This document shows, piece after piece, positions 1,130 to 63,107 of a stretch of 64,000 nucleotides of DNA (position 1 is its first letter; every line of letters starts with the position of its first letter). The notes below the pieces were generated by a model. It saw only the letters and a program-made list of their open reading frames with translations, was not told the origin of the DNA and made no database searches. Both the position numbers and the translations under genes were made by a program. This stretch comes from Schmidtea polychroa (lineage: Eukaryota): assembly GCA_044892525.1 (NCBI GenBank), contig CM097885.1:25670001-25734000 (forward strand). Reading direction: 5' to 3'.

Positions 1130-1400
1130 TCCCATCGAAACCCATCCCTCATTAAAAGCAACCGACTATATCTTTCTTAAAATGAAATATTTCCCATATT
1201 AACCGACTATATCCCCATTAAAAAATCATATATTCCCACCTTATCTGATCTCTCATTAAATCTAACCGACTATATCCCTTTAAAAATCATATATTCCCAT
1301 CTTAACCCATCCCTCATTAAATTTAACCGACAATATCCCATCTTATCCGATCTCTCAGCAAATAATTCTACCCTTTTAAACATCTATCCGATTATATCCC
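1130..1400 (+). repeat. C-rich degenerate minisatellite (aaccgactatatccc core) inside the 6.67 kb unit
   Basis: aaccgactatat/aaccgacaatat recurs at ~1160, 1201, 1264 and 1325. Present in each unit copy. Confidence 0.8.
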
Positions 1401-2149
1401 TTATTTTCCCTAAAGATTCCGCCAACTTGAGCCTTTTAATATATATCAATCCTCTTAAAATCCTCAGAGAAATTCAAAAATATGACTTAACTGTTATAGA
1501 CACCAGACATTCTTCCATTGAAATAATTTAGAAGCTATGTAGTAAGAGCCCGCTGAAAGGTCAAAATTCACTAAAATTTTCTACAAATATTTAACCCATC
1601 AAATACTAGAGATGATATATATTGATTGAACATAATTCTTCAACGATTCAACCAAGCATTTTCAAGCAATAATAGGAAACTAAATTTCAAGTAAGTTAAC
1701 TGGTTTCTTAGCTTATGTTTTTTAAAGTTCATCAATGAGTAAATATTCTTAGAAAATTATTGAAAAAATTATTTAGTCAAATACATTACAAAGTTATCAT
1801 CAAAAATCACTTAATTATTAACCTAATTGTCAATGAAATTAATTTTTATTTAAAAACTATTCAATAAAATACAACTAATTATCAAGAAATTAATTAAATT
1901 TATCAATTAAATTTATCAGTCAACATGAAAGTTTTAGAAAATTGTTCAATATCCTCATAAAAATTTATCATATCACTTGATTATTGTAAAAACTCTAATT
2001 ATTAACCTCATTGAAAATAATTTTTATTTAAAATTTAAAAAAAAACAAGTCAATAAAAATACATCCAATTATCAAGAAATTAATTAAATTTATCTTAGAA
2101 TTAGCATTAAATTATTAAATATTCATTCAATAAACATCAAATTTGCAAA

Positions 2150-2418
2150 AATGTTAGAAATCCACAAAAATAATAGAAATTTACAAAAATCAAAGAAATT
2201 CACAAAAATGATAGAAATCCACAAAAATAATAGAAATTTACAAAAATGATAAAAATTCATTAAAATGATAGATATCCACAAAAATTACTGATATTCACAA
2301 AAAATTATGGAAATTCACAAGAATAATAGAAATTCACAAAAAATGATGGAAATCCACAAAAAACGATAAAAATTTACAAAAAATGATAGAAATTCATAAA
2401 AATGATAGAAATTTACTT
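2150..2418 (+). repeat. ~19-20 bp minisatellite (gatagaaattcacaaaaaat) inside the unit
   Basis: About a dozen degenerate tandem copies of agaaat(t/c)(c/t)acaaaaa. Confidence 0.85.
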
Positions 2419-3596
2419 GAATAAAACCATCAACTCTAAAAATTATCAATGAATGCCATACAAATTTGCCTAAATAATCATTCAAATAAAAGCATTAAAT
2501 ATCTTTACGACTAATACCCTTGCGACTTGTTGAATGTGAGTAGTACCCTTGTGAGCAATACCCATAGGGGGACAGAATATTTTGTCGGATAAACTCACAG
2601 TATATATTAATTAACTCATTCTTCATTGAATTAGTAAAATTATCATAATTTCGATAAAAATTCTAATGTGGTAAGCAATGTAAAAGACAATTATTCTTTA
2701 AACTTTGATAAAATTAACAATGAAGGTGGTAAGAATCTTCATTAAAGTGAGGAAATTACTCGATGATAAATTCAAATGGGTGAAAATAATTGGTAGAATA
2801 ATTCATTAATGGATCATGAGAGGAAAATACTGAGAAGTAGTATAGATAAGATGAAGGTTGATAAGAATGGATGTATTGCAACTATTTTCTAAAAATTAAC
2901 ACTTTAATAAAAGAAAAACTTTTAAAACAAATATTTGTGGGGAAGTGAATAATTAATCAAAATCGGCGGAATATAAGTAGAAAATCGGGGTGGGGGTTAT
3001 AGGCGAATAATTAATGGTAATCAATGGTAAAAAATTTTAAATAAGTAAATTAATGTATTAATTTTTAAATAAGTAAATTAAAGTAATGTAATAAGTAAAT
3101 TAAAGTAAGATTTTAAAATTTAATTACAAAATAATAGAAGGTGTTTGAGAATTGAAATTTTTTGATGAAAATTTTGAAATACCAAGTACATACAACCAAC
3201 ATCAACCAGGTACTAAGCATTATCAACCAAGTACTAACAACCAAGTAACTTACCTAGTACTAAGCACTGTCAACTAGATACCAAACACTTACAACCAGAT
3301 GACCACATGAAATTATTGGTTAAATATGAAAATAAGGATTATATTTAGTTGTTAAGTAAATTATGGTGTAAAATTAAGAAATAAATAATAATTAGGTAAA
3401 TTAAAGTTAAAAATTTTAAATAAGTAAATTAAGGTTCAAAATTTAAAATTAAGTATCCAATGGTTCAAATTTTAAATTAAAGCTAAATAAGTAAATTAAA
3501 GTAAGATTTTTAAATTTATTATCAAAAGATTGAATAACCACCAACTTTTTTTGAGAAATGTAATTTATAATGAAAATTTAAATGGAAATTTTAATG

Positions 3597-3653
<57 letters not shown>

Positions 3654-4124
3654 CAATAATAATAACAATAATAATAATAATAATTCAACAGTTACCAACA
3701 ATCGGTTACTAAATATTTTTAACTAGGTGCTAACAAATACTTTCAACATGATACCACGTACTAACTAACTCTCAAACAACCACATACTTACAACTAACTA
3801 CTTACAATCAACTAAATATTCTTTATTGTATTTTATGAAATGCTTTTTAAATTAATATTTTTTATACAGCTTCTATAATAATTTTAATTACAATCAGTAG
3901 AAAAACCTTTTCAAAATGTCTAAATTTAACAAAAATGTAGATTTTCATCAAAAAATGAATAATTGTCAACTCTAACACCACGTGGAATTCAAAATAATTT
4001 TAATTACAATGAAAGACTAATGAATTCTAATTTACAAAACATTCTTCTTTTAAATGATAACTACTGACTTATTATTGCAATGTAAAAATCGCATTCAATA
4101 AATACTTATTGTTGATCAGTTTTA

Positions 4125-4250
4125 TTATATAAACTCTGAGTTTATCCGACAGGATGTTTTGACCCCCTAAGGGTACAGTTCGTAAGGGTACTGGTCGTAA
4201 GGGTACTGGTCGTAAGGGTATTAGTCGTAAGGGTATTGATCACTCTCAAT
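4125..4250 (+). repeat. Cassette with 15 bp tandem repeat (cgtaagggtactggt)n; direct copy at ~5893-6020, inverted degenerate copy at ~2505-2610
   Basis: ctgagtttatccgacaggatgttttgaccccctaaggg is followed by 4-5 15-mers. The reverse complement is recognisable at 2505-2610. Confidence 0.88.
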
Positions 4251-4269
4251 CCCCACCTACTCATTAATT

Positions 4270-5015
4270 AGCTACCATGTACTAACCACTAGGTTTCAAA
4301 CAACTAAATACTAAACACTTACAACCATGTACTAACAACCAGTTACCTGATACCTAGTACTTACAACTAGTTACTAACAACCAAAAACAAGCAACCAACT
4401 AGGTACCAAGTACTAACAACCAAAAACAACTAGCTAACAACTAGATACCAAGTACCTACAACCACCTACCTATTAACTAGCTACCAAGTACTTACAACTA
4501 GCTACGACCTACCAAGTACTAACAACTAACAACAACCAGGTACTAAGCATTATCAACCAAGTACCTAAAACCACGTATCAAATACATACAACCAACATCA
4601 ACCAGGTACCTACAACTAGATACTAACAAACAGTTACCAAGTACCTACAACCACCTACCCATTAACTAGTTACAACCAGCTAACAACTAGCTACCAAGTA
4701 CTAACAACCAACAACCAGCTAACAACTAACTACCAGATACCTACTACTTACAACCAACAACTAAGTACTAACAACCAGCTAACAACTAGATACCAGGTAC
4801 TAAGCATTATCAACCAAGTACCTACAACTAGATACTAACAACTAGATACCAAGTACCTACAACCACCTACCTATTAACTAGCTACTAGTTACTGACAACT
4901 AGATACCAAGTACATACAACCAACATCAACCAGGTACTAAGCATTATCAACCAAGTACTAACAACCAAGTACAAGATACCTAGTACTGTCAACTAGATAC
5001 CAAACACTTACAACC
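4270..5015 (+). repeat. A/C-rich cryptic simple repeat (ccaagtactaacaa / caactagata motifs)
   Basis: Dense shuffled short motifs with strong strand asymmetry (C much more frequent than G on +). Confidence 0.85.
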
Positions 5016-5399
5016 AGATGACCACATGAAATTATTGGTTAAATATGAAAATAAGGGTTATAATTAGTTGTTTAGTAAATTATGGTGTAAAATTAAGTAA
5101 TAAAGCATAAATAGGTAAATTAAGGATAAGTAAATTAAAGTTAAAAAATTAAATTAAAGTTAATTAAGGTCCAAATTTTAAAAATAAGTAATCAATGTTC
5201 TAAAAAATTAAATTAAAGTTAAATAAGTAAATTAAAGTAATAATTTTTAAAGAATTTAATTAAAGTAATAATTTTTAAATAAGTAATGTAATAAGTAAAT
5301 TAAAGTAAGATTTTTAAATTTATTATCAAAAGATTGAATAACCACCAACTTTTTTGAGAAATGTAATTTTTAATGAAAATTTAAATGGAAATTTAAATG

Positions 5400-5474
<75 letters not shown>

Positions 5475-8400
5475 TACTAATAATTCAACCGTTACCAACA
5501 ATCAGTTACTGATTATTTTTTAACTAGGTGCTAACAAATACTTACACCATGATACCACGTACTAACTAACTCTCAAACAACCAGATACTTACAACTAACT
5601 ACTAAATATTCTTTATTGTATTTTATGAAATGCTTTTTAAATTAATTTTTTATCTATCTTCAAAAATATATTTAATTACAATCATTAGAAAAACCTTTTC
5701 AAATTTAACAAAAATGTTGATTTTCATCAAAAAACCACAACTCATCACCACGTGGAATTCAAAATAATTTTAATTACAATGAAAGACTAATGAATTCTAA
5801 TTTACAAAACATTCTTCTTTTAAATGATAACTACTGACTTATTATTGCAAAGTAAAAATCGCATTCAATAAATACTTATTGTTGATCAGTTTTATTATAT
5901 ATACTCTGAGTTTATCCGACAGGATGTTTTGACCCCCTAAGGGTACAGGTCGTAAGGGTACTGGTCGTAAGGGTATTAGTCGTAAGGGTACTGGTCGAAA
6001 GGATATTGCTAACTCTCAACCCCAACCTACCCATTAACCACCTAACAAGTACCAACAACCAAGTCTCAAACAACTAAATACTAAACACTTACAACCATGT
6101 ACTAACAACCACCATCAAAACCCATCGAGAAATTAACAAATATCAACCTACAACTAGATACTTACAACCAGATACCTGCTACCAAGTACTTACAACAAGA
6201 TACCAAGTACCAACAATCAACTAACCACACATAAAAATAATAGCAATTAAATAAAAAAAATATTCTTCATCGCATACACTATTTTCTTATCAAAATCTAA
6301 AAAGTCAATCAGATACCAACTACCAAGTACCAAGTACTAACAACCAACTACCTAGAACCAACAACTATGTACTAACAAATTGATCTTTAAAAGAAAAATA
6401 CTCATCACTTGAAAAATTAGATGGAAAATTAATTGAACTCAAGGCATCAATAACTAGGTAAAAATTGATTAAATTATTGTAAAAATTTAAAATATTCGAA
6501 ATAAATATCATAAAAATTTAATTAATGGACAGGAAAAAATTCTAGTCATCAAGTAAATAAAAAAAATATTGATCATTCAAGTTGAATCAACTAAGATAAT
6601 AAATTAATAAGATAAGATCTAGTAGATAATTGATTTAGATTGAATAAATTAATTGAAATAAAATTAATTTTAAGTATTTTTTTAAAAGTAATACATGTAC
6701 TCAAATTGATTGACTGATTTCTCAATATATTCAAAAAAAATCAGTATAAATTCATTACAATTATCAAAGTCAGCAATCTACAATAAAAATAATTATCATA
6801 AAATTCCAAAAGACACTGATAACTAATGATAACATCTAATAAACCAGTAAATTTATTTAAATGACAATAATTGGTATATCCTAGTGAATTCTCCAATTTC
6901 TCATTTCCTCCCAAATATATCAATATGTAAAGATTGGTATTGTAATGATAAATACTTGTTAAGGATCATATATTCACCTCAAACTAACAAGATTCCTTAA
7001 AATCCCTTAAATGACTATATTTCTACCCTTAATTCATATTATTACAAATATTTCACTAAAATCATCTAAAAAGCATCAAATTTCATTGAAATAACTCTAT
7101 CTTTTAAGATTAGTATTTTATCGATAAATATCCTTAAAAGGTTATATATTTACCTCAGACTAATAAGATTGCTTAAAATTCCCTTTAAATGACTTTAATT
7201 CCTATTATCACGAATATTTCCCTATAAAACATGTAAAATAATTTGGTCATTAACCCTAAATAATTTATAAAATCTAATGATAAAACTGGTTATAATTAAT
7301 TTTTTGTTAATAACTGTACTCGATATTTTAAATAAATATTACTACAATATAACTGACTAGGTCCCATTGAAAGATTTATCCATTCAATAAAATATATTTC
7401 TTCAAATGATCATTTTTACCAATATTCAACCGATTTAATTACTAATTAAAATCAAGATTTCTTCCAATAAAGATCAATTTTTTTAGTCGATGTTTTAAGT
7501 CCATATTTATCAACTTTTGTCATTCTCCCTCTTAAATAAAGATAAAAATAATTTAAAGTTGATATTTCATTGTCAAAACCAAGTAAATCGGTCATTAACA
7601 CTACTTAATAAAACCCTGGATAATTAAAAGAAAATTTAATAAAACATTGTTCTAAAACATAAATCTAAATTAATATACAATGAATTAATCACAACCTAAT
7701 AAAACGATATAATTATTAGTGATTCATAACTGACTAATTGCAATTTCCCTTAAAACATTGATATTTTACCAACATTACCCATGTAAATATTCAAAAGATT
7801 CCCATCGAAACCCATCCCTCATTAAAAGCAACCGACTATATCTTTCTTAAAATGAAATATTTCCCATATTAACCGACTATATCCCCATTAAAAAATCATA
7901 TATTCCCACCTTATCTGATCTCTCATTAAATCTAACCGACTATATCCCTTTAAAAATCATATATTCCCATCTTAACCCATCCCTCATTAAATTTAACCGA
8001 CAATATCCCATCTTATCCGATCTCTCAGCAAATAATTCTACCCTTTTAAACATCTATCCGATTATATCCCTTATTTTCCCTAAAGATTCCGCCAACTTGA
8101 GCCTTTTAATATATATCAATCCTCTTAAAATCCTCAGAGAAATTCAAAAATATGACTTAACTGTTATAGACACCAGACATTCTTCCATTGAAATAATTTA
8201 GAAGCTATGTAGTAAGAGCCCGCTGAAAGGTCAAAATTCACTAAAATTTTCTACAAATATTTAACCCATCAAATACTAGAGATGATATATATTGATTGAA
8301 CATAATTCTTCAACGATTCAACCAAGCATTTTCAAGCAATAATAGGAAACTAAATTTCAAGTAAGTTAACTGGTTTCTTAGCTTATGTTTTTTAAAGTTC

Positions 8401-9686
8401 ATCAATGAGTAAATATTCTTAGAAAATTATTGAAAAAATTATTTAGTCAAATACATTACAAAGTTATCATCAAAAATCACTTAATTATTAACCTAATTGT
8501 CAATGAAATTAATTTTTATTTAAAAACTATTCAATAAAATACAACTAATTATCAAGAAATTAATTAAATTTATCAATTAAATTTATCAGTCAACATGAAA
8601 GTTTTAGAAAATTGTTCAATATCCTCATAAAAATTTATCATATCACTTGATTATTGTAAAAACTCTAATTATTAACCTCATTGAAAATAATTTTTATTTA
8701 AAATTTAAAAAAAAACAAGTCAATAAAAATACATCCAATTATCAAGAAATTAATTAAATTTATCTTAGAATTAGCATTAAATTATTAAATATTCATTCAA
8801 TAAACATCAAATTTGCAAAAATGTTAGAAATCCACAAAAATAATAGAAATTTACAAAAATCAAAGAAATTCACAAAAATGATAGAAATCCACAAAAATAA
8901 TAGAAATTTACAAAAATGATAAAAATTCATTAAAATGATAGATATCCACAAAAATTACTGATATTCACAAAAAATTATGGAAATTCACAAGAATAATAGA
9001 AATTCACAAAAAATGATGGAAATCCACAAAAAACGATAAAAATTTACAAAAAATGATAGAAATTCATAAAAATGATAGAAATTTACTTGAATAAAACCAT
9101 CAACTCTAAAAATTATCAATGAATGCCATACAAATTTGCCTAAATAATCATTCAAATAAAAGCATTAAATATCTTTACGACTAATACCCTTGCGACTTGT
9201 TGAATGTGAGTAGTACCCTTGTGAGCAATACCCATAGGGGGACAGAATATTTTGTCGGATAAACTCACAGTATATATTAATTAACTCATTCTTCATTGAA
9301 TTAGTAAAATTATCATAATTTCGATAAAAATTCTAATGTGGTAAGCAATGTAAAAGACAATTATTCTTTAAACTTTGATAAAATTAACAATGAAGGTGGT
9401 AAGAATCTTCATTAAAGTGAGGAAATTACTCGATGATAAATTCAAATGGGTGAAAATAATTGGTAGAATAATTCATTAATGGATCATGAGAGGAAAATAC
9501 TGAGAAGTAGTATAGATAAGATGAAGGTTGATAAGAATGGATGTATTGCAACTATTTTCTAAAAATTAACACTTTAATAAAAGAAAAACTTTTAAAACAA
9601 ATATTTGTGGGGAAGTGAATAATTAATCAAAATCGGCGGAATATAAGTAGAAAATCGGGGTGGGGGTTATAGGCGAATAATTAATG

Positions 9687-10266
9687 GTAATCAATGGTAA
9701 AAAATTTTAAATAAGTAAATTAATGTATTAATTTTTAAATAAGTAAATTAAAGTAATGTAATAAGTAAATTAAAGTAAGATTTTAAAATTTAATTACAAA
9801 ATAATAGAAGGTGTTTGAGAATTGAAATTTTTTGATGAAAATTTTGAAATACCAAGTACATACAACCAACATCAACCAGGTACTAAGCATTATCAACCAA
9901 GTACTAACAACCAAGTAACTTACCTAGTACTAAGCACTGTCAACTAGATACCAAACACTTACAACCAGATGACCACATGAAATTATTGGTTAAATATGAA
10001 AATAAGGATTATATTTAGTTGTTAAGTAAATTATGGTGTAAAATTAAGAAATAAATAATAATTAGGTAAATTAAAGTTAAAAATTTTAAATAAGTAAATT
10101 AAGGTTCAAAATTTAAAATTAAGTATCCAATGGTTCAAATTTTAAATTAAAGCTAAATAAGTAAATTAAAGTAAGATTTTTAAATTTATTATCAAAAGAT
10201 TGAATAACCACCAACTTTTTTTGAGAAATGTAATTTATAATGAAAATTTAAATGGAAATTTTAATG

Positions 10267-10329
<63 letters not shown>

Positions 10330-12074
10330 CAATAATAATAACAATAATAATAATAATAATTCAACAGTTACCAACAATCGGTTACTAAATATTTTTAACT
10401 AGGTGCTAACAAATACTTTCAACATGATACCACGTACTAACTAACTCTCAAACAACCACATACTTACAACTAACTACTTACAATCAACTAAATATTCTTT
10501 ATTGTATTTTATGAAATGCTTTTTAAATTAATATTTTTTATACAGCTTCTATAATAATTTTAATTACAATCAGTAGAAAAACCTTTTCAAAATGTCTAAA
10601 TTTAACAAAAATGTAGATTTTCATCAAAAAATGAATAATTGTCAACTCTAACACCACGTGGAATTCAAAATAATTTTAATTACAATGAAAGACTAATGAA
10701 TTCTAATTTACAAAACATTCTTCTTTTAAATGATAACTACTGACTTATTATTGCAATGTAAAAATCGCATTCAATAAATACTTATTGTTGATCAGTTTTA
10801 TTATATAAACTCTGAGTTTATCCGACAGGATGTTTTGACCCCCTAAGGGTACAGTTCGTAAGGGTACTGGTCGTAAGGGTACTGGTCGTAAGGGTATTAG
10901 TCGTAAGGGTATTGATCACTCTCAATCCCCACCTACTCATTAATTAGCTACCATGTACTAACCACTAGGTTTCAAACAACTAAATACTAAACACTTACAA
11001 CCATGTACTAACAACCAGTTACCTGATACCTAGTACTTACAACTAGTTACTAACAACCAAAAACAAGCAACCAACTAGGTACCAAGTACTAACAACCAAA
11101 AACAACTAGCTAACAACTAGATACCAAGTACCTACAACCACCTACCTATTAACTAGCTACCAAGTACTTACAACTAGCTACGACCTACCAAGTACTAACA
11201 ACTAACAACAACCAGGTACTAAGCATTATCAACCAAGTACCTAAAACCACGTATCAAATACATACAACCAACATCAACCAGGTACCTACAACTAGATACT
11301 AACAAACAGTTACCAAGTACCTACAACCACCTACCCATTAACTAGTTACAACCAGCTAACAACTAGCTACCAAGTACTAACAACCAACAACCAGCTAACA
11401 ACTAACTACCAGATACCTACTACTTACAACCAACAACTAAGTACTAACAACCAGCTAACAACTAGATACCAGGTACTAAGCATTATCAACCAAGTACCTA
11501 CAACTAGATACTAACAACTAGATACCAAGTACCTACAACCACCTACCTATTAACTAGCTACTAGTTACTGACAACTAGATACCAAGTACATACAACCAAC
11601 ATCAACCAGGTACTAAGCATTATCAACCAAGTACTAACAACCAAGTACAAGATACCTAGTACTGTCAACTAGATACCAAACACTTACAACCAGATGACCA
11701 CATGAAATTATTGGTTAAATATGAAAATAAGGGTTATAATTAGTTGTTTAGTAAATTATGGTGTAAAATTAAGTAATAAAGCATAAATAGGTAAATTAAG
11801 GATAAGTAAATTAAAGTTAAAAAATTAAATTAAAGTTAATTAAGGTCCAAATTTTAAAAATAAGTAATCAATGTTCTAAAAAATTAAATTAAAGTTAAAT
11901 AAGTAAATTAAAGTAATAATTTTTAAAGAATTTAATTAAAGTAATAATTTTTAAATAAGTAATGTAATAAGTAAATTAAAGTAAGATTTTTAAATTTATT
12001 ATCAAAAGATTGAATAACCACAACTTTTTTGAGAAATGTAATTTTTAATGAAAATTTAAATGGAAATTTAAATG

Positions 12075-12149
<75 letters not shown>

Positions 12150-15100
12150 TACTAATAATTCAACCGTTACCAACAATCAGTTACTGATTATTTTTTAACT
12201 AGGTGCTAACAAATACTTACACCATGATACCACGTACTAACTAACTCTCAAACAACCAGATACTTACAACTAACTACTAAATATTCTTTATTGTATTTTA
12301 TGAAATGCTTTTTAAATTAATTTTTTATCTATCTTCAAAAATATATTTAATTACAATCATTAGAAAAACCTTTTTCAAATTAACAAAAATGTTGATTTTC
12401 ATCAAAAAACCACAACTCATCACCACGTGGAATTCAAAATAATTTTAATTACAATGAAAGACTAATGAATTCTAATTTACAAAACATTCTTCTTTTAAAT
12501 GATAACTACTGACTTATTATTGCAAAGTAAAAATCGCATTCAATAAATACTTATTGTTGATCAGTTTTATTATATATACTCTGAGTTTATCCGACAGGAT
12601 GTTTTGACCCCCTAAGGGTACAGGTCGTAAGGGTACTGGTCGTAAGGGTATTAGTCGTAAGGGTACTGGTCGAAAGGATATTGCTAACTCTCAACCCCAA
12701 CCTACCCATTAACCACCTAACAAGTACCAACAACCAAGTCTCAAACAACTAAATACTAAACACTTACAACCATGTACTAACAACCACCATCAAAACCCAT
12801 CGAGAAATTAACAAATATCAACCTACAACTAGATACTTACAACCAGATACCTGCTACCAAGTACTTACAACAAGATACCAAGTACCAACAATCAACTAAC
12901 CACACATAAAAATAATAGCAATTAAATAAAAAAAATATTCTTCATCGCATACACTATTTTCTTATCAAAATCTAAAAAGTCAATCAGATACCAACTACCA
13001 AGTACCAAGTACTAACAACCAACTACCTAGAACCAACAACTATGTACTAACAAATTGATCTTTAAAAGAAAAATACTCATCACTTGAAAAATTAGATGGA
13101 AAATTAATTGAACTCAAGGCATCAATAACTAGGTAAAAATTGATTAAATTATTGTAAAAATTTAAAATATTCGAAATAAATATCATAAAAATTTAATTAA
13201 TGGACAGGAAAAAATTCTAGTCATCAAGTAAATAAAAAAAATATTGATCATTCAAGTTGAATCAACTAAGATAATAAATTAATAAGATAAGATCTAGTAG
13301 ATAATTGATTTAGATTGAATAAATTAATTGAAATAAAATTAATTTTAAGTATTTTTTTAAAAGTAATACATGTACTCAAATTGATTGACTGATTTCTCAA
13401 TATATTCAAAAAAAATCAGTATAAATTCATTACAATTATCAAAGTCAGCAATCTACAATAAAAATAATTATCATAAAATTCCAAAAGACACTGATAACTA
13501 ATGATAACATCTAATAAACCAGTAAATTTATTTAAATGACAATAATTGGTATATCCTAGTGAATTCTCCAATTTCTCATTTCCTCCCAAATATATCAATA
13601 TGTAAAGATTGGTATTGTAATGATAAATACTTGTTAAGGATCATATATTCACCTCAAACTAACAAGATTCCTTAAAATCCCTTAAATGACTATATTTCTA
13701 CCCTTAATTCATATTATTACAAATATTTCACTAAAATCATCTAAAAAGCATCAAATTTCATTGAAATAACTCTATCTTTTAAGATTAGTATTTTATCGAT
13801 AAATATCCTTAAAAGGTTATATATTTACCTCAGACTAATAAGATTGCTTAAAATTCCCTTTAAATGACTTTAATTCCTATTATCACGAATATTTCCCTAT
13901 AAAACATGTAAAATAATTTGGTCATTAACCCTAAATAATTTATAAAATCTAATGATAAAACTGGTTATAATTAATTTTTTGTTAATAACTGTACTCGATA
14001 TTTTAAATAAATATTACTACAATATAACTGACTAGGTCCCATTGAAAGATTTATCCATTCAATAAAATATATTTCTTCAAATGATCATTTTTACCAATAT
14101 TCAACCGATTTAATTACTAATTAAAATCAAGATTTCTTCCAATAAAGATCAATTTTTTTAGTCGATGTTTTAAGTCCATATTTATCAACTTTTGTCATTC
14201 TCCCTCTTAAATAAAGATAAAAATAATTTAAAGTTGATATTTCATTGTCAAAACCAAGTAAATCGGTCATTAACACTACTTAATAAAACCCTGGATAATT
14301 AAAAGAAAATTTAATAAAACATTGTTCTAAAACATAAATCTAAATTAATATACAATGAATTAATCACAACCTAATAAAACGATATAATTATTAGTGATTC
14401 ATAACTGACTAATTGCAATTTCCCTTAAAACATTGATATTTTACCAACATTACCCATGTAAATATTCAAAAGATTCCCATCGAAACCCATCCCTCATTAA
14501 AAGCAACCGACTATATCTTTCTTAAAATGAAATATTTCCCATATTAACCGACTATATCCCCATTAAAAAATCATATATTCCCACCTTATCTGATCTCTCA
14601 TTAAATCTAACCGACTATATCCCTTTAAAAATCATATATTCCCATCTTAACCCATCCCTCATTAAATTTAACCGACAATATCCCATCTTATCCGATCTCT
14701 CAGCAAATAATTCTACCCTTTTAAACATCTATCCGATTATATCCCTTATTTTCCCTAAAGATTCCGCCAACTTGAGCCTTTTAATATATATCAATCCTCT
14801 TAAAATCCTCAGAGAAATTCAAAAATATGACTTAACTGTTATAGACACCAGACATTCTTCCATTGAAATAATTTAGAAGCTATGTAGTAAGAGCCCGCTG
14901 AAAGGTCAAAATTCACTAAAATTTTCTACAAATATTTAACCCATCAAATACTAGAGATGATATATATTGATTGAACATAATTCTTCAACGATTCAACCAA
15001 GCATTTTCAAGCAATAATAGGAAACTAAATTTCAAGTAAGTTAACTGGTTTCTTAGCTTATGTTTTTTAAAGTTCATCAATGAGTAAATATTCTTAGAAA

Positions 15101-18100
15101 ATTATTGAAAAAATTATTTAGTCAAATACATTACAAAGTTATCATCAAAAATCACTTAATTATTAACCTAATTGTCAATGAAATTAATTTTTATTTAAAA
15201 ACTATTCAATAAAATACAACTAATTATCAAGAAATTAATTAAATTTATCAATTAAATTTATCAGTCAACATGAAAGTTTTAGAAAATTGTTCAATATCCT
15301 CATAAAAATTTATCATATCACTTGATTATTGTAAAAACTCTAATTATTAACCTCATTGAAAATAATTTTTATTTAAAATTTAAAAAAAAACAAGTCAATA
15401 AAAATACATCCAATTATCAAGAAATTAATTAAATTTATCTTAGAATTAGCATTAAATTATTAAATATTCATTCAATAAACATCAAATTTGCAAAAATGTT
15501 AGAAATCCACAAAAATAATAGAAATTTACAAAAATCAAAGAAATTCACAAAAATGATAGAAATCCACAAAAATAATAGAAATTTACAAAAATGATAAAAA
15601 TTCATTAAAATGATAGATATCCACAAAAATTACTGATATTCACAAAAAATTATGGAAATTCACAAGAATAATAGAAATTCACAAAAAATGATGGAAATCC
15701 ACAAAAAACGATAAAAATTTACAAAAAATGATAGAAATTCATAAAAATGATAGAAATTTACTTGAATAAAACCATCAACTCTAAAAATTATCAATGAATG
15801 CCATACAAATTTGCCTAAATAATCATTCAAATAAAAGCATTAAATATCTTTACGACTAATACCCTTGCGACTTGTTGAATGTGAGTAGTACCCTTGTGAG
15901 CAATACCCATAGGGGGACAGAATATTTTGTCGGATAAACTCACAGTATATATTAATTAACTCATTCTTCATTGAATTAGTAAAATTATCATAATTTCGAT
16001 AAAAATTCTAATGTGGTAAGCAATGTAAAAGACAATTATTCTTTAAACTTTGATAAAATTAACAATGAAGGTGGTAAGAATCTTCATTAAAGTGAGGAAA
16101 TTACTCGATGATAAATTCAAATGGGTGAAAATAATTGGTAGAATAATTCATTAATGGATCATGAGAGGAAAATACTGAGAAGTAGTATAGATAAGATGAA
16201 GGTTGATAAGAATGGATGTATTGCAACTATTTTCTAAAAATTAACACTTTAATAAAAAAAAAACTTTTAAAACAAATATTTGTGGGGAAGTGAATAATTA
16301 ATCAAAATCGGCGGAATATAAGTAGAAAATCGGGGTGGGGGTTATAGGCGAATAATTAATGGAAATTCGAGGGGATATAAGTGAATAATTAATGGAGAAT
16401 CGGGGGAATATAGGAGATTAAATAGTGGGATAATGAGAATCGGTGGAATATAAGTGAGAAGGATATGTAATTGAAACTATTTTATTACGTAACAAGCCGC
16501 GACTAATTTATTACATAACAAGCAGTGAATGATATTTTACCAACATTATACATGGTATATAATTTTAATTTTAATTGTATTTTTAAATTGTATATATTTT
16601 CAATATCATTCTATTGTTTAATACCAATAATAAGTATAAAAAGTCTATAATGATTAATAAATTAATATCTTGTTAACATTTATCTGAAAATTTAAAAAAC
16701 TTTACTTAAGATTTAGTGAAATATTTAATTTTGATTGTATTTTATAAGACATATATTTGAGTATTAACTTATTTTGATTGAAGTATTATATTCAATATTA
16801 TGATGATTTTTTTTCTAAATTAAAATATTTTAGTGTAAAATAGTAAATTTAATAATGAATAGAATACAATATTAAAGGACTTTTTAAAAAGAAAAATTAC
16901 TTTCTATTACCTAATTCCATCATTAAGTTTAAAAAGTCTATAACTGGTAATAAATCAATTTCTTATTCACATTTTCTTATAAAACTTATATTTTTAAATT
17001 TAGTGTAAAGAATTTAATTTTAATTGTATTTTATAAGTCATTTATTTGAATATTTATCTTATTTTTATTGAAAGGAGTAATATAATTAATAATATGATAA
17101 TTGTTTTTGAAATATTTAGTGTAGAATAATAAATTTATTAATAAATAATTATTACAATATTAAAGGACTTATACAACAAAATTTTTTTCTTATTCCATAA
17201 AAAAGTTTTAAAGTATATAACTGGTAATAAATTAATTTCTCATTTACATTTATTTAAAAAAGCTTTACTTATAAAATTTATATTTTCTAAGACTTATATT
17301 TGAATATTAACTTATTTTGATTGAAAATGGTAATTGATTTAGAAATTATTTAGTGTAAACTAAAACATTTAAATTATTAAGGTATTAAAGTACCTATTCA
17401 AAAATTAAAAAAAAAAGACCTAATCAATAATTCTCAATAAAATACCATTCACAGCTTGTTATGTAATAAACTAGTCGCGGCTTGTTATGTAATAAAATAG
17501 TTTAAATTACATATCCTTCTCACTTATATTCCACCGATTCTCATTATCCCACTATTTAATCTCCTATATTCCCCCGATTCTCCATTAATTATTCACTTAT
17601 ATCCCCTCGAATTTCCATTAATTATTCGCCTATAACCCCCACCCCGATTTTCTACTTATATTCCGCCGATTCTCCATTAATTATTCACTTATATCCCCTC
17701 GAATTTCCATTAATTATTCGCCTATAACCCCCACCCCGATTTTCTACTTATATTCCGCCGATTTTGATTAATTATTCACTTCCCCACAAATATTTGTTTT
17801 AAAAGTTTTTCTTTTATTAAAGTGTTAATTTTTAGAAAATAGTTGCAATACATCCATTCTTATCAACCTTCATCTTATCTATACTACTTCTCAGTATTTT
17901 CCTCTCATGATCCATTAATGAATTATTCTACCAATTATTTTCACCCATTTGAATTTATCATCGAGTAATTTCCTCACTTTAATGAAGATTCTTACCACCT
18001 TCATTGTTAATTTTATCAAAGTTTAAAGAATAATTGTCTTTTACATTGCTTACCACATTAGAATTTTTATCGAAATTATGATAATTTTACTAATTCAATG

Positions 18101-21100
18101 AAGAATGAGTTAATTAATATATACTGTGAGTTTATCCGACAAAATATTCTGTCCCCCTATGGGTATTGCTCACAAGGGTACTACTCACATTCAACAAGTC
18201 GCAAGGGTATTAGTCGTAAAGATATTTAATGCTTTTATTTGAATGATTATTTAGGCAAATTTGTATGGCATTCATTGATAATTTTTAGAGTTGATGGTTT
18301 TATTCAAGTAAATTTCTATCATTTTTATGAATTTCTATCATTTTTTGTAAATTTTTATCGTTTTTTGTGGATTTCCATCATTTTTTGTGAATTTCTATTA
18401 TTCTTGTGAATTTCCATAATTTTTTGTGAATATCAGTAATTTTTGTGGATATCTATCATTTTAATGAATTTTTATCATTTTTGTAAATTTCTATTATTTT
18501 TGTGGATTTCTATCATTTTTGTGAATTTCTTTGATTTTTGTAAATTTCTATTATTTTTGTGGATTTCTAACATTTTTGCAAATTTGATGTTTATTGAATG
18601 AATATTTAATAATTTAATGCTAATTCTAAGATAAATTTAATTAATTTCTTGATAATTGGATGTATTTTTATTGACTTGTTTTTTTTTAAATTTTAAATAA
18701 AAATTATTTTCAATGAGGTTAATAATTAGAGTTTTTACAATAATCAAGTGATATGATAAATTTTTATGAGGATATTGAACAATTTTCTAAAACTTTCATG
18801 TTGACTGATAAATTTAATTGATAAATTTAATTAATTTCTTGATAATTAGTTGTATTTTATTGAATAGTTTTTAAATAAAAATTAATTTCATTGACAATTA
18901 GGTTAATAATTAAGTGATTTTTGATGATAACTTTGTAATGTATTTGACTAAATAATTTTTTCAATAATTTTCTAAGAATATTTACTCATTGATGAACTTT
19001 AAAAAACATAAGCTAAGAAACCAGTTAACTTACTTGAAATTTAGTTTCCTATTATTGCTTGAAAATGCTTGGTTGAATCGTTGAAGAATTATGTTCAATC
19101 AATATATATCATCTCTAGTATTTGATGGGTTAAATATTTGTAGAAAATTTTAGTGAATTTTGACCTTTCAGCGGGCTCTTACTACATAGCTTCTAAATTA
19201 TTTCAATGGAAGAATGTCTGGTGTCTATAACAGTTAAGTCATATTTTTGAATTTCTCTGAGGATTTTAAGAGGATTGATATATATTAAAAGGCTCAAGTT
19301 GGCGGAATCTTTAGGGAAAATAAGGGATATAATCGGATAGATGTTTAAAAGGGTAGAATTATTTGCTGAGAGATCGGATAAGATGGGATATTGTCGGTTA
19401 AATTTAATGAGGGATGGGTTAAGATGGGAATATATGATTTTTAAAGGGATATAGTCGGTTAGATTTAATGAGAGATCAGATAAGGTGGGAATATATGATT
19501 TTTTAATGGGGATATAGTCGGTTAATATGGGAAATATTTCATTTTAAGAAAGATATAGTCGGTTGCTTTTAATGAGGGATGGGTTTCGATGGGAATCTTT
19601 TGAATATTTACATGGGTAATGTTGGTAAAATATCAATGTTTTAAGGGAAATTGCAATTAGTCAGTTATGAATCACTAATAATTATATCGTTTTATTAGGT
19701 TGTGATTAATTCATTGTATATTAATTTAGATTTATGTTTTAGAACAATGTTTTATTAAATTTTCTTTTAATTATCCAGGGTTTTATTAAGTAGTGTTAAT
19801 GACCGATTTACTTGGTTTTGACAATGAAATATCAACTTTAAATTATTTTTATCTTTATTTAAGAGGGAGAATGACAAAAGTTGATAAATATGGACTTAAA
19901 ACATCGACTAAAAAAATTGATCTTTATTGGAAGAAATCTTGATTTTAATTAGTAATTAAATCGGTTGAATATTGGTAAAAATGATCATTTGAAGAAATAT
20001 ATTTTATTGAATGGATAAATCTTTCAATGGGACCTAGTCAGTTATATTGTAGTAATATTTATTTAAAATATCGAGTACAGTTATTAACAAAAAATTAATT
20101 ATAACCAGTTTTATCATTAGATTTTATAAATTATTTAGGGTTAATGACCAAATTATTTTACATGTTTTATAGGGAAATATTCGTGATAATAGGAATTAAA
20201 GTCATTTAAAGGGAATTTTAAGCAATCTTATTAGTCTGAGGTAAATATATAACCTTTTAAGGATATTTATCGATAAAATACTAATCTTAAAAGATAGAGT
20301 TATTTCAATGAAATTTGATGCTTTTTAGATGATTTTAGTGAAATATTTGTAATAATATGAATTAAGGGTAGAAATATAGTCATTTAAGGGATTTTAAGGA
20401 ATCTTGTTAGTTTGAGGTGAATATATGATCCTTAACAAGTATTTATCATTACAATACCAATCTTTACATATTGATATATTTGGGAGGAAATGAGAAATTG
20501 GAGAATTCACTAGGATATACCAATTATTGTCATTTAAATAAATTTACTGGTTTATTAGATGTTATCATTAGTTATCAGTGTCTTTTGGAATTTTATGATA
20601 ATTATTTTTATTGTAGATTGCTGACTTTGATAATTGTAATGAATTTATACTGATTTTTTTTGAATATATTGAGAAATCAGTCAATCAATTTGAGTACATG
20701 TATTACTTTTAAAAAAATACTTAAAATTAATTTTATTTCAATTAATTTATTCAATCTAAATCAATTATCTACTAGATCTTATCTTATTAATTTATTATCT
20801 TAGTTGATTCAACTTGAATGATCAATATTTTTTTTATTTACTTGATGACTAGAATTTTTTCCTGTCCATTAATTAAATTTTTATGATATTTATTTCGAAT
20901 ATTTTAAATTTTTACAATAATTTAATCAATTTTTACCTAGTTATTGATGCCTTGAGTTCAATTAATTTTCCATCTAATTTTTCAAGTGATGAGTATTTTT
21001 CTTTTAAAGATCAATTTGTTAGTACATAGTTGTTGGTTCTAGGTAGTTGGTTGTTAGTACTTGGTACTTGGTAGTTGGTATCTGATTGACTTTTTAGATT

Positions 21101-21919
21101 TTGATAAGAAAATAGTGTATGCGATGAAGAATATTTTTTTTATTTAATTGCTATTATTTTTATGTGTGGTTAGTTGATTGTTGGTACTTGGTATCTTGTT
21201 GTAAGTACTTGGTAGCAGGTATCTGGTTGTAAGTATCTAGTTGTAGGTTGATATTTGTTAATTTCTCGATGGGTTTTGATGGTGGTTGTTAGTACATGGT
21301 TGTAAGTGTTTAGTATTTAGTTGTTTGAGACTTGGTTGTTGGTACTTGTTAGGTGGTTAATGGGTAGGTTGGGGTTGAGAGTTAGCAATATCCTTTCGAC
21401 CAGTACCCTTACGACTAATACCCTTACGACCAGTACCCTTACGACCTGTACCCTTAGGGGGTCAAAACATCCTGTCGGATAAACTCAGAGTATATATAAT
21501 AAAACTGATCAACAATAAGTATTTATTGAATGCGATTTTTACTTTGCAATAATAAGTCAGTAGTTATCATTTAAAAGAAGAATGTTTTGTAAATTAGAAT
21601 TCATTAGTCTTTCATTGTAATTAAAATTATTTTGAATTCCACGTGGTGATGAGTTGTGGTTTTTTGATGAAAATCAACATTTTTGTTAAATTTGAAAAGG
21701 TTTTTCTAATGATTGTAATTAAATATATTTTTGAAGATAGATAAAAAATTAATTTAAAAAGCATTTCATAAAATACAATAAAGAATATTTAGTAGTTAGT
21801 TGTAAGTATCTGGTTGTTTGAGAGTTAGTTAGTACGTGGTATCATGGTGTAAGTATTTGTTAGCACCTAGTTAAAAAATAATCAGTAACTGATTGTTGGT
21901 AACGGTTGAATTATTAGTA

Positions 21920-21991
<72 letters not shown>

Positions 21992-23737
21992 CATTTAAAT
22001 TTCCATTTAAATTTTCATTAAAAATTACATTTCTCAAAAAAGTTGGTGGTTATTCAATCTTTTGATAATAAATTTAAAAATCTTACTTTAATTTACTTAT
22101 TACATTACTTATTTAAAAATTATTACTTTAATTAAATTCTTTAAAAATTATTACTTTAATTTACTTATTTAACTTTAATTTAATTTTTTAGAACATTGAT
22201 TACTTATTTTTAAAATTTGGACCTTAATTAACTTTAATTTAATTTTTTAACTTTAATTTACTTATCCTTAATTTACCTATTTATGCTTTATTACTTAATT
22301 TTACACCATAATTTACTAAACAACTAATTATAACCCTTATTTTCATATTTAACCAATAATTTCATGTGGTCATCTGGTTGTAAGTGTTTGGTATCTAGTT
22401 GACAGTACTAGGTATCTTGTACTTGGTTGTTAGTACTTGGTTGATAATGCTTAGTACCTGGTTGATGTTGGTTGTATGTACTTGGTATCTAGTTGTCAGT
22501 AACTAGTAGCTAGTTAATAGGTAGGTGGTTGTAGGTACTTGGTATCTAGTTGTTAGTATCTAGTTGTAGGTACTTGGTTGATAATGCTTAGTACCTGGTA
22601 TCTAGTTGTTAGCTGGTTGTTAGTACTTAGTTGTTGGTTGTAAGTAGTAGGTATCTGGTAGTTAGTTGTTAGCTGGTTGTTGGTTGTTAGTACTTGGTAG
22701 CTAGTTGTTAGCTGGTTGTAACTAGTTAATGGGTAGGTGGTTGTAGGTACTTGGTAACTGTTTGTTAGTATCTAGTTGTAGGTACCTGGTTGATGTTGGT
22801 TGTATGTATTTGTTACGTGGTTTTAGGTACTTGGTTGATAATGCTTAGTACCTGGTTGTTGTTAGTTGTTAGTACTTGGTAGGTCGTAGCTAGTTGTAAG
22901 TACTTGGTAGCTAGTTAATAGGTAGGTGGTTGTAGGTACTTGGTATCTAGTTGTTAGCTAGTTGTTTTTGGTTGTTAGTACTTGGTACCTAGTTGGTTGC
23001 TTGTTTTTGGTTGTTAGTAACTAGTTGTAAGTACTAGGTATCAGGTAACTGGTTGTTAGTACATGGTTGTAAGTGTTTAGTATTTAGTTGTTTGAAACCT
23101 AGTGGTTAGTACATGGTAGCTAATTAATGAGTAGGTGGGGATTGAGAGTGATCAATACCCTTACGACTAATACCCTTACGACCAGTACCCTTACGACCAG
23201 TACCCTTACGAACTGTACCCTTAGGGGGTCAAAACATCCTGTCGGATAAACTCAGAGTTTATATAATAAAACTGATCAACAATAAGTATTTATTGAATGC
23301 GATTTTTACATTGCAATAATAAGTCAGTAGTTATCATTTAAAAGAAGAATGTTTTGTAAATTAGAATTCATTAGTCTTTCATTGTTATTAAAATTATTTT
23401 GAATTCCACGTGGTGTTAGAGTTGACAATTATTCATTTTTTGATGAAAATCTACATTTTTGTTAAATTTAGACATTTTGAAAAGGTTTTTCTACTGATTG
23501 TAATTAAAATTATTATAGAAGCTGTATAAAAAATATTAATTTAAAAAGCATTTCATAAAATACAATAAAGAATATTTAGTTGATTGTAAGTAGTTAGTTG
23601 TAAGTATGTGGTTGTTTGAGAGTTAGTTAGTACGTGGTATCATGTTGAAAGTATTTGTTAGCACCTAGTTAAAAATATTTAGTAACCGATTGTTGGTAAC
23701 TGTTGAATTATTATTATTATTATTGTTATTATTATTG

Positions 23738-23818
<81 letters not shown>

Positions 23819-24398
23819 CATTAAAATTTCCATTTAAATTTTCATTATAAATTACATTTCTCAAAAAAAGTTGGTGGTTATTCAATCTTTTGATAATAAA
23901 TTTAAAAATCTTACTTTAATTTACTTATTTAGCTTTAATTTAAAATTTGAACCATTGGATACTTAATTTTAAATTTTGAACCTTAATTTACTTATTTAAA
24001 ATTTTTAACTTTAATTTACCTAATTATTATTTATTTCTTAATTTTACACCATAATTTACTTAACAACTAAATATAATCCTTATTTTCATATTTAACCAAT
24101 AATTTCATGTGGTCATCTGGTTGTAAGTGTTTGGTATCTAGTTGACAGTGCTTAGTACTAGGTAAGTTACTTGGTTGTTAGTACTTGGTTGATAATGCTT
24201 AGTACCTGGTTGATGTTGGTTGTATGTACTTGGTATTTCAAAATTTTCATCAAAAAATTTCAATTCTCAAACACCTTCTATTATTTTGTAATTAAATTTT
24301 AAAATCTTACTTTAATTTACTTATTACATTACTTTAATTTACTTATTTAAAAATTAATACATTAATTTACTTATTTAAAATTTTTTACCATTGATTAC
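9687..24398. repeat. Giant inverted repeat (palindrome): left arm 9687-16539, spacer 16540-17437, right arm 17438-24398
   Basis: 17438-24398 is the reverse complement of 9687-16539. Mirrored ORFs: 13416..13598(-) with 20471..20653(+), and 10200..10388(+) with 23679..23885(-). The arms differ by a 92 bp duplication, (AAT)n length and a few substitutions. Confidence 0.97.
16540..17437. repeat. Central spacer of the palindrome containing three decayed ~280-290 bp tandem copies
   Basis: aagtctataa…taataaat(t/c)aat starts at ~16641, ~16934 and ~17211, each followed by a similar atttg(a/g)atatt…cttattttgattgaa block. Confidence 0.75.
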
Positions 24399-25490
24399 TT
24401 AATTTAAAAATTTGGACCATTATTTACTGTAATTTAGTTTTTAAGAACTTAAATTTACTTTAATTCAAAAATTTGGACCATTATTTACTTTAATTTGAAA
24501 AATTTGAGCCATTATTTACTTTAATTGAAAAATCTGAGCCCATTAATTACTTTAATTCGAAAATATGAACCTTAATTTAATTTTTTAGGACCATAATTAA
24601 CTTTAATTTAATTTTTTAGGACCATTATTTACTTTAATTTAAAATTTTGAACCTTAATTTAGTTATTTGAGCCCATTCATTACTTTAATTGAAAAATCTA
24701 AGCCCATAATTTACTTTAATTCAAAAATTTGGACCATAATTTACTGTAATTTTAAAATTTGGACCATAATTTACTGTAATTCAATTTTTTTTAGACCATA
24801 ATTTACTGTAATATAATTTTTTAGAACCATAATTTACTGTAATTTAATTTTTTAGGACCATAATTACCTTATTTGAAAAATTTGAACCATAATTTACTTT
24901 AATTGAAAAATTTGGACCATTATTTACTTTAATTTAATATTTTAGAACCATAATTTACTTTAATTTAATTTTTAGAACCATTATTTACTGTAATTCAATT
25001 TTTAGAACCATTATTTACTGTAATTGAAAATTTTGAGCCATAATTTACTATAATTTAATTTTTAGAACCATAATTTACTTTAATTTTAAAATTTGGACCT
25101 TAATTTACTTTAATTTAATTTTTAGAACCATTATTTACTTTAATTTAAATTTTTGGACCATTATTTACTGTAATTTAATTTTTAAGAACCATAATTTACT
25201 TTAATTGAAAAATTTGGACCATAATTTACTTTAATTTAATTTTTTAGAACCATAATTTACTTTAATTTAAATTTTTGGACCATTATTTACTGTAATTTAA
25301 TTTTTAAGAACCATTATTTACTTTAATTTAAAAATTTGGACCATAATTTACTGTAATTTAAAAATTTGAGCCATAATTTACTGTAATTTAATTTTTAGAA
25401 CCATAATTTACTGTAATTGAAAAATTTGAGCCATAATTTACTTTAATTTAATTTTTAGAACCATAATTTACTTTAATTGAAAAATTTACC
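24399..25490 (+). repeat. ~30 bp AT-rich satellite (ccataatttactttaattgaaaaatttgga-like)
   Basis: More than 30 tandem degenerate copies of (g/a)accataatttact(t/g)taatt. Confidence 0.92.
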
Positions 25491-25970
25491 ACGTTTTTAG
25501 TGTAGACCACATATTTCTCAGGACCAAGGAGACTCACCTCACTATAGTCTGAAAAATCCTTGGCTTTTTTAGTGTAGACCGGCTTTTTGTATTGAAAATA
25601 TCCTGAGACCTTAAATTACCATGCTTTTTTAGTGGTAGTCGGATTTTTGTATTGAAAAAAAATTTTTGTATTGAAAATCGTAGGACCAACGAGACCCCCT
25701 CACTATAGTGTGAAAATTACCATGCTTTTTTAGTGGTAGTCGGATTTTTGTATTGAAAAAATTTTTTTTTGTATTGAAAATCCTAGGACCATCGTTTTTG
25801 TATAGAAAAAATGTTATTTGTATTGAAAATCCCAGGACCATCGTTTTTGTATTGAAAAATTTTTTTTTGTATTGAAAATCCCAGGACCATCGTTTTTGTA
25901 TTGAAAAATTTTTTTTTGTATTGAAAATCCCAGGACCATCGAGACCCCCTCACTACAGTCTGAAAAATTG
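25490..25970 (+). repeat. Subterminal repeat block (tttgtattgaaaa arrays; three cctcacta(t/c)agt(c/g)tgaaaa motifs)
   Basis: Repeated gtattgaaaatcccaggaccatcg units; cctcactatag-type motif at ~25536, ~25697 and ~25947. Confidence 0.85.
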
Positions 25971-25980
25971 CGTAATCAAA

Positions 25981-26049
25981 AGTTGCAGCAAAAAAAAAGT
26001 TGCAGCAGGGGGTCCCCCCCATTGCTGCGGTACGCTACTATCTACCTAC

Positions 26050-26050
<1 letters not shown>
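25981..26050. mobile_element. Putative right terminus of a giant non-autonomous foldback element (GC hairpin + AGTAG-type end)
   Basis: A hairpin gcagca-ggggg-t-ccccccc-at-tgctgc lies at 26002-26028. The sequence ends …ctactatctacctact and switches abruptly to (ATT)n at 26051. The other end is outside the window. Confidence 0.45.
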
Positions 26051-26092
<42 letters not shown>

Positions 26093-26155
26093 TTTATAAT
26101 TATTATTAATATGAATATAGTGATGATTTCTTGGTGTTAAAATAAGTAAGTAAAT

Positions 26156-26321
26156 GTTAAATAAGTAAATGATAATATATACCTTTTGCTGCAAAGTATA
26201 TATTTAATAAAATAAAATAATTTTCGATTATATAAAATTAATCGAAAAATAATATCATTTTTTAATTTTATTCAATATATACTTTGCAGCAAATGGCTTA
26301 TATTATTATTTACTTGTTTAA
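26156..26321. mobile_element. Small foldback / MITE-like inverted repeat
   Basis: ttgctgcaaagtatatatt (26186-26204) pairs with aatatatactttgcagcaa (26274-26292). Imperfect pairing extends both outward and inward (ttttcgatta/taatcgaaaa). Confidence 0.6.
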
Positions 26322-26381
26322 TATTAATATTATTATTATTAATATTGTTGTAAACAATTTCGCCCTAACGTAATCTTATAG

Positions 26382-51972
<25,591 letters not shown>

Positions 51973-62746: not shown

Positions 62747-63107
62747 ACTAATAATTTTTCTTAATATTTGCCGCGCACAAAATAGTCTATAAAAAAAGAT
62801 GTTCACATGGGAATCGGTGCTTCCCGATGCAATATAAGATCCGTTTGGGTGGAACACCAGCGAAGGTACAAAACCTCCGTGCTCCTGGAATGTGTCGTTT
62901 TTGTCATTACTGCTTGACGCGATCAAATTGTGAGACAGACATAACCAAGAGTGCATTCACACATTCCAGGAGCACGGAGGTTTTGTACCTTCGCTGGTGT
63001 TCCACCCAAACGGATCTTATATTGCATCGGGAGGCACCGATTCCCATGTGAACATCTTTTTTTATAGACTATTTTGTGCGCGGCAAATATTAAGAAAAAT
63101 TATTAGT
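62747..63107. repeat. Near-perfect 149 bp inverted repeat with 63 nt loop, containing a POC1-like WD40 coding fragment
   Basis: 62747-62895 is the reverse complement of 62959-63107 except for one T/G pair (62821/63033). The + frame reads KL*DRHNQECIHTFQEHGGFVPSLVFHPNGSYIASGGTDSHVNIF. Confidence 0.93.

Follow-up and report, generated by a model that had tools for sequence, protein, structure and literature searches.

What kind of DNA ends at the ATT microsatellite near position 26,050, and what brought it there? We analysed a window of 64,000 nucleotides (the whole stretch, 64 kb), in which an AG-rich tip and a GC hairpin stand directly beside this microsatellite. The original prediction placed here the end of a giant gene-less palindrome moved by a Polinton/Maverick, with a Helitron or Helentron end as the weaker alternative. 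We find that 25981-26050 is very probably the end of a high-copy foldback mobile element. In the reading we prefer, to which we assign a probability of about one half, this giant foldback is young and non-autonomous, and a Polinton/Maverick mobilises it in trans.

A gene-less palindrome with near-identical arms

Self-comparison of the window delimits a right arm of 8,613 bp on the minus strand (17438-26050), a central spacer of 898 bp (16540-17437) containing a degenerate tandem repeat of about 277 bp, and a left arm on the plus strand that runs past the window edge. The left side is built of units that are the reverse complement of 17707-24398: a first 6.67-kb copy (9687-16362), which together with the centre-proximal part forms the inner left arm (9687-16539), a second tandem copy (3017-9686) and a third, partial copy (1-3016), the left terminus lying beyond position 1. 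Within the window the right arm is mirrored over 6.96 kb, and the partner of its outer 1.65 kb is beyond the edge. Compared with the right arm, the unit at 9687-16362 carries 6 substitutions and a 1-bp indel over 6.7 kb, the unit at 3017-9686 carries 2 substitutions over 6.7 kb plus microsatellite length changes, and the partial unit shows no substitution over 3.0 kb, the junction base aside. Divergence of the left tandem copies (at least three) from the right arm is below 0.1%. Five further substitutions between the arms are found in the 67 bp beside the spacer, and the arms are further distinguished by microsatellite lengths and by a duplication of 92 bp, which in the right arm is situated close to the centre.

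In the left arm of this copy, two or more additional 6.67-kb units have been added in tandem. Since both complete left copies share two substitutions, the tandem gain is later than these substitutions; it is a late event and probably does not belong to the mobile unit. If the tandem gain and the 92-bp duplication are subtracted, the symmetric length is 18,032 bp, and the symmetric form would be an element of about 18.0 kb, composed of two arms of about 8.5 kb and the 898-bp spacer. The left tip is predicted some 5.3 kb ahead of position 1, or at a distance greater than this by multiples of 6.67 kb. On the plus strand it should read AGTAGGTAGATAG, with ATT repeats ahead of it and, beyond them, an adducin exon that is missing from the window. 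The tandem-unit junctions at 3017 and 9687 have only a 1-bp shared G. Each arm also contains an older internal duplication (21283-22488 and 23050-24236, 83.5% identical), each copy of which adjoins an (ATT)n tract.

No genes are detectable in the element, and the right arm has no detectable coding capacity. Its longest ATG-initiated ORF encodes 79 amino acids, a length reached or exceeded in 7 of 50 shuffles. No Pfam match above cut-off was obtained for any of the 60 element ORFs of at least 40 amino acids, nor for the six frames of 16540-26050 with stops read as X; two weak matches below the cut-off, KSHV_K1 in the ORF search and PBP5_C in the read-through frames, were dismissed. A search of PHROGs with 48 of the 60 ORFs (the 12 containing microsatellites being left out) gave no match. 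Neither a Polinton gene remnant, nor a RepHel remnant, nor a reverse transcriptase remnant was found in the six read-through frames of the element. One segment of 330 bp chosen by eye, 17790-18120, had a period-3 z-score of 5.5 (1 in 300) but was dropped as a coding remnant because fixed 300-nucleotide windows scored 0.4 and 2.0; its frame, stops read as X, had no match among 1.84 billion representatives.

Rfam returned nothing at gathering score over the whole 64-kb window; a ribozyme or rRNA reading of 16200-26400 was rejected, with just two weak matches below gathering. A scan for sigma-70 promoters and terminators, irrelevant for an animal, gave nothing above shuffles. Relatives of the terminus were absent from viral contigs in all four pattern scans. 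In metagenome contigs, one pattern scan gave no match and another gave two, loci of 57.6% GC with no further similarity, which we attribute to chance. A search of RNA data with 25480-30400 listed no holder, a result with no bearing on expression. Self-comparison, together with the ORF and domain searches, thus bears out the claim that the terminus is the end of a giant gene-less palindrome.

The terminus, its repeats and its abundance

Read on the minus strand, (AAT)14 is followed by AGTAGGTAGATAGTAGCGTACC and then by GCAGCA-AT-G7-A-C5-TGCTGC, exactly the letters originally given. The first part, 5'-AGTAGGTAGATAGTAGCGTACC (26029-26050, minus strand), is the putative outer terminus, an AG/TAG-reiterated tip whose first A is 26050. 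The second part is a GC hairpin (26002-26028, read from 26028 to 26002 on the minus strand) located 22 bp inside the end, with an 11-bp stem made of a 6-bp outer and a 5-bp G/C inner portion. Its folding energy as DNA is -10.2 kcal/mol, against -6.7 for the best non-overlapping window, and it is the most stable of the 14,985 plus-strand 27-nucleotide windows of the 64 kb with at least 10 G+C. In its 101-nucleotide context the z-score is only -1.97 (8 of 200 shuffles). The hairpin sequence is single-copy within the window, even with up to three mismatches allowed. The adjoining (ATT)14 tract (26051-26092, plus strand) is the probable target of insertion.

How distinctive is the tip? Its first six letters, AGTAGG, are one mismatch from the Maverick (AGT)2 motif. 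In host DNA, AATA is followed by G in 140 of 760 cases, so that a 5'-AG alone is weak evidence; it is followed by GTAG in none of the 760, and by a 6-mer that departs from AGTAGT or AGAGAG at no more than one position in 13 (1.7%). Four TAG triplets per 22 nucleotides occur in none of 75,278 host windows and in 16 of 17,104 windows within the element, hence TAG-rich windows are present elsewhere in the element as well; both the tip-motif and the TAG-count tests are post hoc. Twelve other (AAT)6+ tract rows exist in the 64 kb, none of them followed by AGTAG. As AGTAG occurs again at 26039, one copy leaves the exact end unfixed. The tip's C-rich run can also be read as a microsatellite edge decayed from TAT to TAC.

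From the tip inward, the order is hairpin, two 13-mers, a 490-bp mosaic and a 1.15-kb minisatellite. The 13-mer, AAAAGTTGCAGCA, is present as two direct plus-strand copies (25978-25990 and 25995-26007) in a region of high contig depth (25978-26007). The mosaic of short repeats (25488-25977, plus strand, about 490 bp) comprises a 15-bp box in 11 copies, a 19-bp box in 3 copies and a 49-bp tandem in 4 copies, all 11 copies of the first and all 3 of the second lying within 570 bp of the end. The minisatellite, a 30/61-bp array in the outer right arm, covers 24335-25487 (plus strand).

We compared 4 of 21 public read runs (X1, X5, X6 and X13) with 25905-26900 and expressed depths relative to the adducin exon, whose depth was 16.9, 41.3 and 44.4 in X1, X5 and X6. 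Run X13, in which the repeat parts were covered and the exon was uncovered, was left out of the ratios. Run X1 may be the window's own source, with two zero-difference pieces over 26203-26287 and 26296-26900; X5 and X6 belong to a second study. In the order X1/X5/X6, depth amounted to 61,615/50,002/50,946 times single-copy at 25905-25938, 5,936/2,361/2,841 times at 25973-26006 and 50/23/30 times at 26007-26040, and the flank at 26109-26142 gave 1.0/0.2/0.2 times exon depth, X5 and X6 covering it partly. The terminus marks a boundary between highly repeated DNA and a single-copy host flank.

These summed contig depths are a rough measure and not a copy number, and the 13-mer occurs twice per end; we read them only as a family size of the order of 10^3 ends. 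The region of the 15-bp boxes is 10 to 21 times deeper than that of the 13-mers, a step that fits 11 boxes per end. The repeat 26040-26124 was skipped in read placement, and the nil depth at 26041-26108 reflects this skipping. Since depth drops past 26007, the outermost 45 bp, with the exact hairpin and tip, are not established family-wide; depth at 26013, only 3.8/0.6/0 times single-copy, counts against a family-wide hairpin and tip. Homopolymer fragmentation and repeat skipping may cause the drop at 26007-26040. Among the few contigs covering the hairpin, its inner G/C stem varies: three X1 contigs have an extra A at 26013, and in two X6 contigs the G run is replaced by another 13-mer-like unit and a longer C run.

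Possible mobilisation by a Polinton, and the alternatives

We infer from these features that the element is mobile and needs a helper. Is this helper a Polinton? We would put the odds at about even. Of the Polinton/Maverick-type end originally predicted, the 5'-AG (26050-26049) is present at the putative terminus and the tip comes within one mismatch of (AGT)2; AGTAGG itself does not figure among the published motifs. In vertebrates, Mavericks have (AGT)2 or (AG)3 at their ends and make target site duplications (TSDs) of 6 bp (PMC8097293), although motifs from vertebrates may not be the planarian's. Protein-primed origins require terminal repeats for sliding or jumping back (PMC2175359), and AGTAGG would permit a three-base jump-back of A or AG, not of AGT. 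The symmetric length of 18,032 bp falls within the range of intact vertebrate Mavericks (12.7-24.6 kb; PMC8097293), which counts for a Polinton; nematode Mavericks measure 13-25 kb, with TSDs of 5-8 bp (bioRxiv 10.1101/2023.08.22.554363). The TSD length is ambiguous at this copy because the site is (ATT)n.

The element thus resembles Polintons/Mavericks by its 5'-AG start, near-(AGT)2 tip, inverted ends and size of about 18 kb, within a 13-25 kb range (PMC8097293, PMC6431247, bioRxiv 10.1101/2023.08.22.554363). It differs by its tip, AGTAGG, by the absence of Polinton genes and by its 8.6-kb arms, which count against this relationship since Maverick terminal inverted repeats (TIRs) measure 0.05-1.5 kb (46-1,447 bp in intact vertebrate copies; PMC8097293). 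An autonomous Polinton has pPolB, a retroviral-like integrase, an ATPase, a protease and capsid genes; the element, lacking these, fails as an autonomous Polinton and may work like a Polinton derivative. It also counts against a Polinton that the window shows no TSD, no second end and no helper.

Under Polinton mobilisation, protein-primed replication would initiate with jump-back at the AG-reiterated tip, the origin, and the helper's polymerase/terminal protein or integrase would recognise the subterminal boxes and the hairpin as signals to bind. A displaced strand, folding back on a short and imperfect inverted repeat next to the spacer, would copy itself, yielding a palindrome with two identical ends, which the helper integrase would insert with a 6-bp duplication. 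In a model proposed for Polinton replication, a single strand is excised and its TIRs form a panhandle (PMC4046053). The concentration of mismatches beside the spacer, together with the near-identical arms, is what fold-back priming would leave; young age or arm-to-arm conversion would fit too.

A more specific reading, which we think less likely than not, sees in the element the integrated snap-back satellite of a polintovirus, obligately palindromic, gene-less and roughly of helper-genome length. Such a satellite would have retained nothing but the origin at its ends, protein-binding boxes in multiplied form and perhaps promoter boxes of the helper's type; replicated through a hairpin intermediate by the protein-primed polymerase of the helper, it would have reached the order of a thousand copies. 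The promoter boxes could be the GGATAAAC module of about 120 bp, present three times per arm (21392-21500 and 23156-23270 on the plus strand, 18220-18120 on the minus strand). In it, tandem repeats of 15 bp are followed by a run of G, by an invariant 15-mer that includes ATAAAC and finally by TATAT. While GGATAAAC occurs 3 times in the arm and is absent from host DNA at 26351-64000, the 6-mer ATAAAC is not enriched (the arm has 7, where 11.9 are expected).

Palindromic snap-back or hairpin defective genomes are known for protein-primed linear replicons, such as the hairpin derivatives of yeast pGKL1 and the defective genomes of adenovirus. In these, as in the element, one terminal region is duplicated in inverted orientation and both ends carry the origin. 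The element differs from them in being chromosomally integrated, high-copy and built of minisatellites. If the satellite reading is true, the element would be to the chromosome what defective-interfering genomes are to viruses, and would show in nature how Polintons replicate. A high-copy, gene-less and fully palindromic passenger would reveal which cis signals are minimally needed (tip, hairpin, boxes) and would lead one to expect detectable hairpin or protein-capped extrachromosomal DNA, so that the Polinton model becomes testable in an animal.

Has such an element been described before? Kapitonov and Jurka, in their 2006 Polinton paper, are said to list non-autonomous Polintons. In the literature we searched (titles and abstract beginnings, mostly without subscription papers and repeat catalogues), no gene-less giant palindromes with such ends came up, and phrases for non-autonomous Polinton or Maverick were found in one paper, on Tlr1. 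The available text of that paper terms Tlr1 non-autonomous, yet Tlr1 carries genes (PMC5499653). As far as the accessible parts of these papers go, no non-autonomous Polintons are reported in Anolis (PMC3014272), TIR-only remnants are described at one locus in C. elegans (bioRxiv 10.1101/2024.01.15.575659), and a review of giant transposons mentions foldback elements a single time, in another context (PMC6431247).

The strongest alternative, which we nevertheless judge unlikely, is a foldback derivative of a cut-and-paste TIR superfamily, of the Mutator/FB or P/Galileo type, in which the tandem boxes would be multiplied transposase-binding sites and the AG tip would be incidental. Long modular TIRs, internal tandem repeats and a non-coding middle constitute the foldback plan, which is also that of Drosophila FB, Tetris and Tm1, and the element has all three; the crowding of the 15-bp and 19-bp boxes within 570 bp of the end speaks for this origin too. 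The likeness extends to variable arm length, as far as the available descriptions of Tetris, Tm1 and Galileo show. However, Tetris TIRs reach 1,735 bp, with TSDs of 8-10 bp (PMC4079207), and the element's arms are about five times longer. Tm1, which mostly has a 9-bp TSD, has arms averaging 93% identity (PMC3169594), against more than 99.9% here, a difference that age could explain. The near-(AGT)2 tip, expected by chance in 1.7% of cases, is left unexplained, and an AG-reiterated tip is a further difference from Tetris and Tm1. Even if another transposase were the helper, the near-identical 8.6-kb arms would far exceed the foldback TIRs of these papers.

A Helitron origin was the weaker alternative of the original prediction, a judgment that needs to be divided. 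Canonical Helitrons (HLE1) have a 3' hairpin followed by CTRR (PMC11417382); there is no CTRR in 26029-26060, where CTAC stands at 26035, 26042 and 26046, and a canonical end is excluded. The Helentron alternative, on the other hand, had been underrated, since the geometry of the 3' end fits. At a T-rich target, the Helentron 3' end has its subterminal inverted repeat (subTIR) at a distance of 38-60 bp and a palindrome at 8-35 bp (PMC4067079). Here, the 13-mer, assumed to be the subTIR, ends 43 bp from the end (26007), and the hairpin lies at 22 bp (26028), both within the published ranges. HINEs contain tandem repeats and favour T-rich targets (PMC4067079), and the ATT tract offers TT sites. 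The terminus could then be a Helentron/HLE2-type 3' end (HINE, DINE-1-like), with the palindrome secondary, formed for example by two head-to-head copies or by fold-back. The 13-bp subterminal repeat, the stem-loop near the end, the internal minisatellites and the T-rich flank are indeed shared with HINE/DINE-1 and HLE2 elements as described in the parts of the literature available. Yet the whole element is palindromic, whereas HLE2 TIRs are 12-17 nucleotides long (PMC11417382), not kilobases; the tip has no T run, no inverted partner of the 13-mer exists in 1-26050 at up to two mismatches (the left end being beyond the window edge), and the read-through frames hold no RepHel remnant. We regard this origin as improbable.

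About as little can be said for the idea that there is no transposon end here at all, and that a dispersed satellite mosaic or local inverted duplication is edged by decaying (TAT)n, or that the assembly was misjoined at the microsatellite. If two additional C are allowed for, the tip can be read as units of TAC/TAT; none of the listed contigs spans 26040-26124 (the repeat skipped in read placement), the upstream adducin exon is missing from the window and the left arm is tandemly amplified. However, the parts are arranged as at an element end, with unique flank, tip, hairpin and graded subterminal repeats in succession, and the ratio of box to 13-mer depth is in line with 11 boxes per end. 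No other (AAT)6+ tract leads into AGTAG, and the 92-bp duplication and microsatellite differences between the arms are unlike a simple read chimera. We consider this explanation improbable as well. A stem-loop before a short tandem tail is the pattern of LINE 3' ends, so the hairpin and the (ATT)n could belong to a non-LTR retroelement or SINE, but neither a reverse transcriptase remnant nor an Rfam match reaching the gathering score was found, an inverted arm of 8.6 kb would be unexpected, and we hold this to be very improbable.

The host locus and its neighbourhood

The element end faces an adducin gene. An internal adducin exon encoding an Aldolase_II domain lies at 26382-26651 (plus strand), its acceptor 332 bp from the element end, and the exons begin at 26382, 26690, 30135, 43211 and 47117, with probably another at about 51.7-52.0 kb (gene 26382-52000). 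The related database adducin P0004 aligns to the exons from 26382 onward with 82-93% identity, and for its first 56 residues nothing in the 64-kb window matches better than E 2.1. As the preceding exon is missing from the window, the element sits in an adducin intron of more than 26 kb, unless there is a misjoin at the ATT tract; this copy would lengthen that intron by at least 26 kb. An ORF at 36387-36788 may be a further adducin exon, without a match in P0004.

Downstream are two tandem SLC43-like transporter genes (57326-58873 and 63260-64000), 86% identical in DNA, the first being a single long ORF. One SLC43-like protein nearby shares 45% identity with Schmidtea mediterranea slc43a-5, which makes a triclad planarian the probable host. 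P0004 itself joins an adducin to a piece of the SLC43-like family; it is probably a chimera of gene modelling or assembly, mirroring this order of genes.

Between the ATT tract and the adducin exon lies a separate palindromic MITE of about 200 bp (26147-26346), whose edges are marked by contigs with unrelated flanks that stop matching at 26147/26151 and 26343/26346. Its depth is about 800-3,200 times single-copy, which accounts for the high depth within the host flank. The MITE and the element have a 10-mer in common, TTGCAGCAAA, which may be chance.

Decayed transposon pieces are found at 44822-46147, 60615-61950, 35843-36127, 27169-27660 and 62747-63107. They comprise Tc1/mariner-like, hAT-like (DUF4371, weak) and piggyBac-like (zf-Tnp_2) sequences, an element with 14-bp inverted repeats and a hairpin element with 149-bp arms; apart from the Pfam names, the Tc1/mariner-like, hAT-like and piggyBac-like family labels are our own presumption. 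From its translation, we take 49399-49665 to be a short Hsp90-like N-terminal fragment, probably a piece of a pseudogene.
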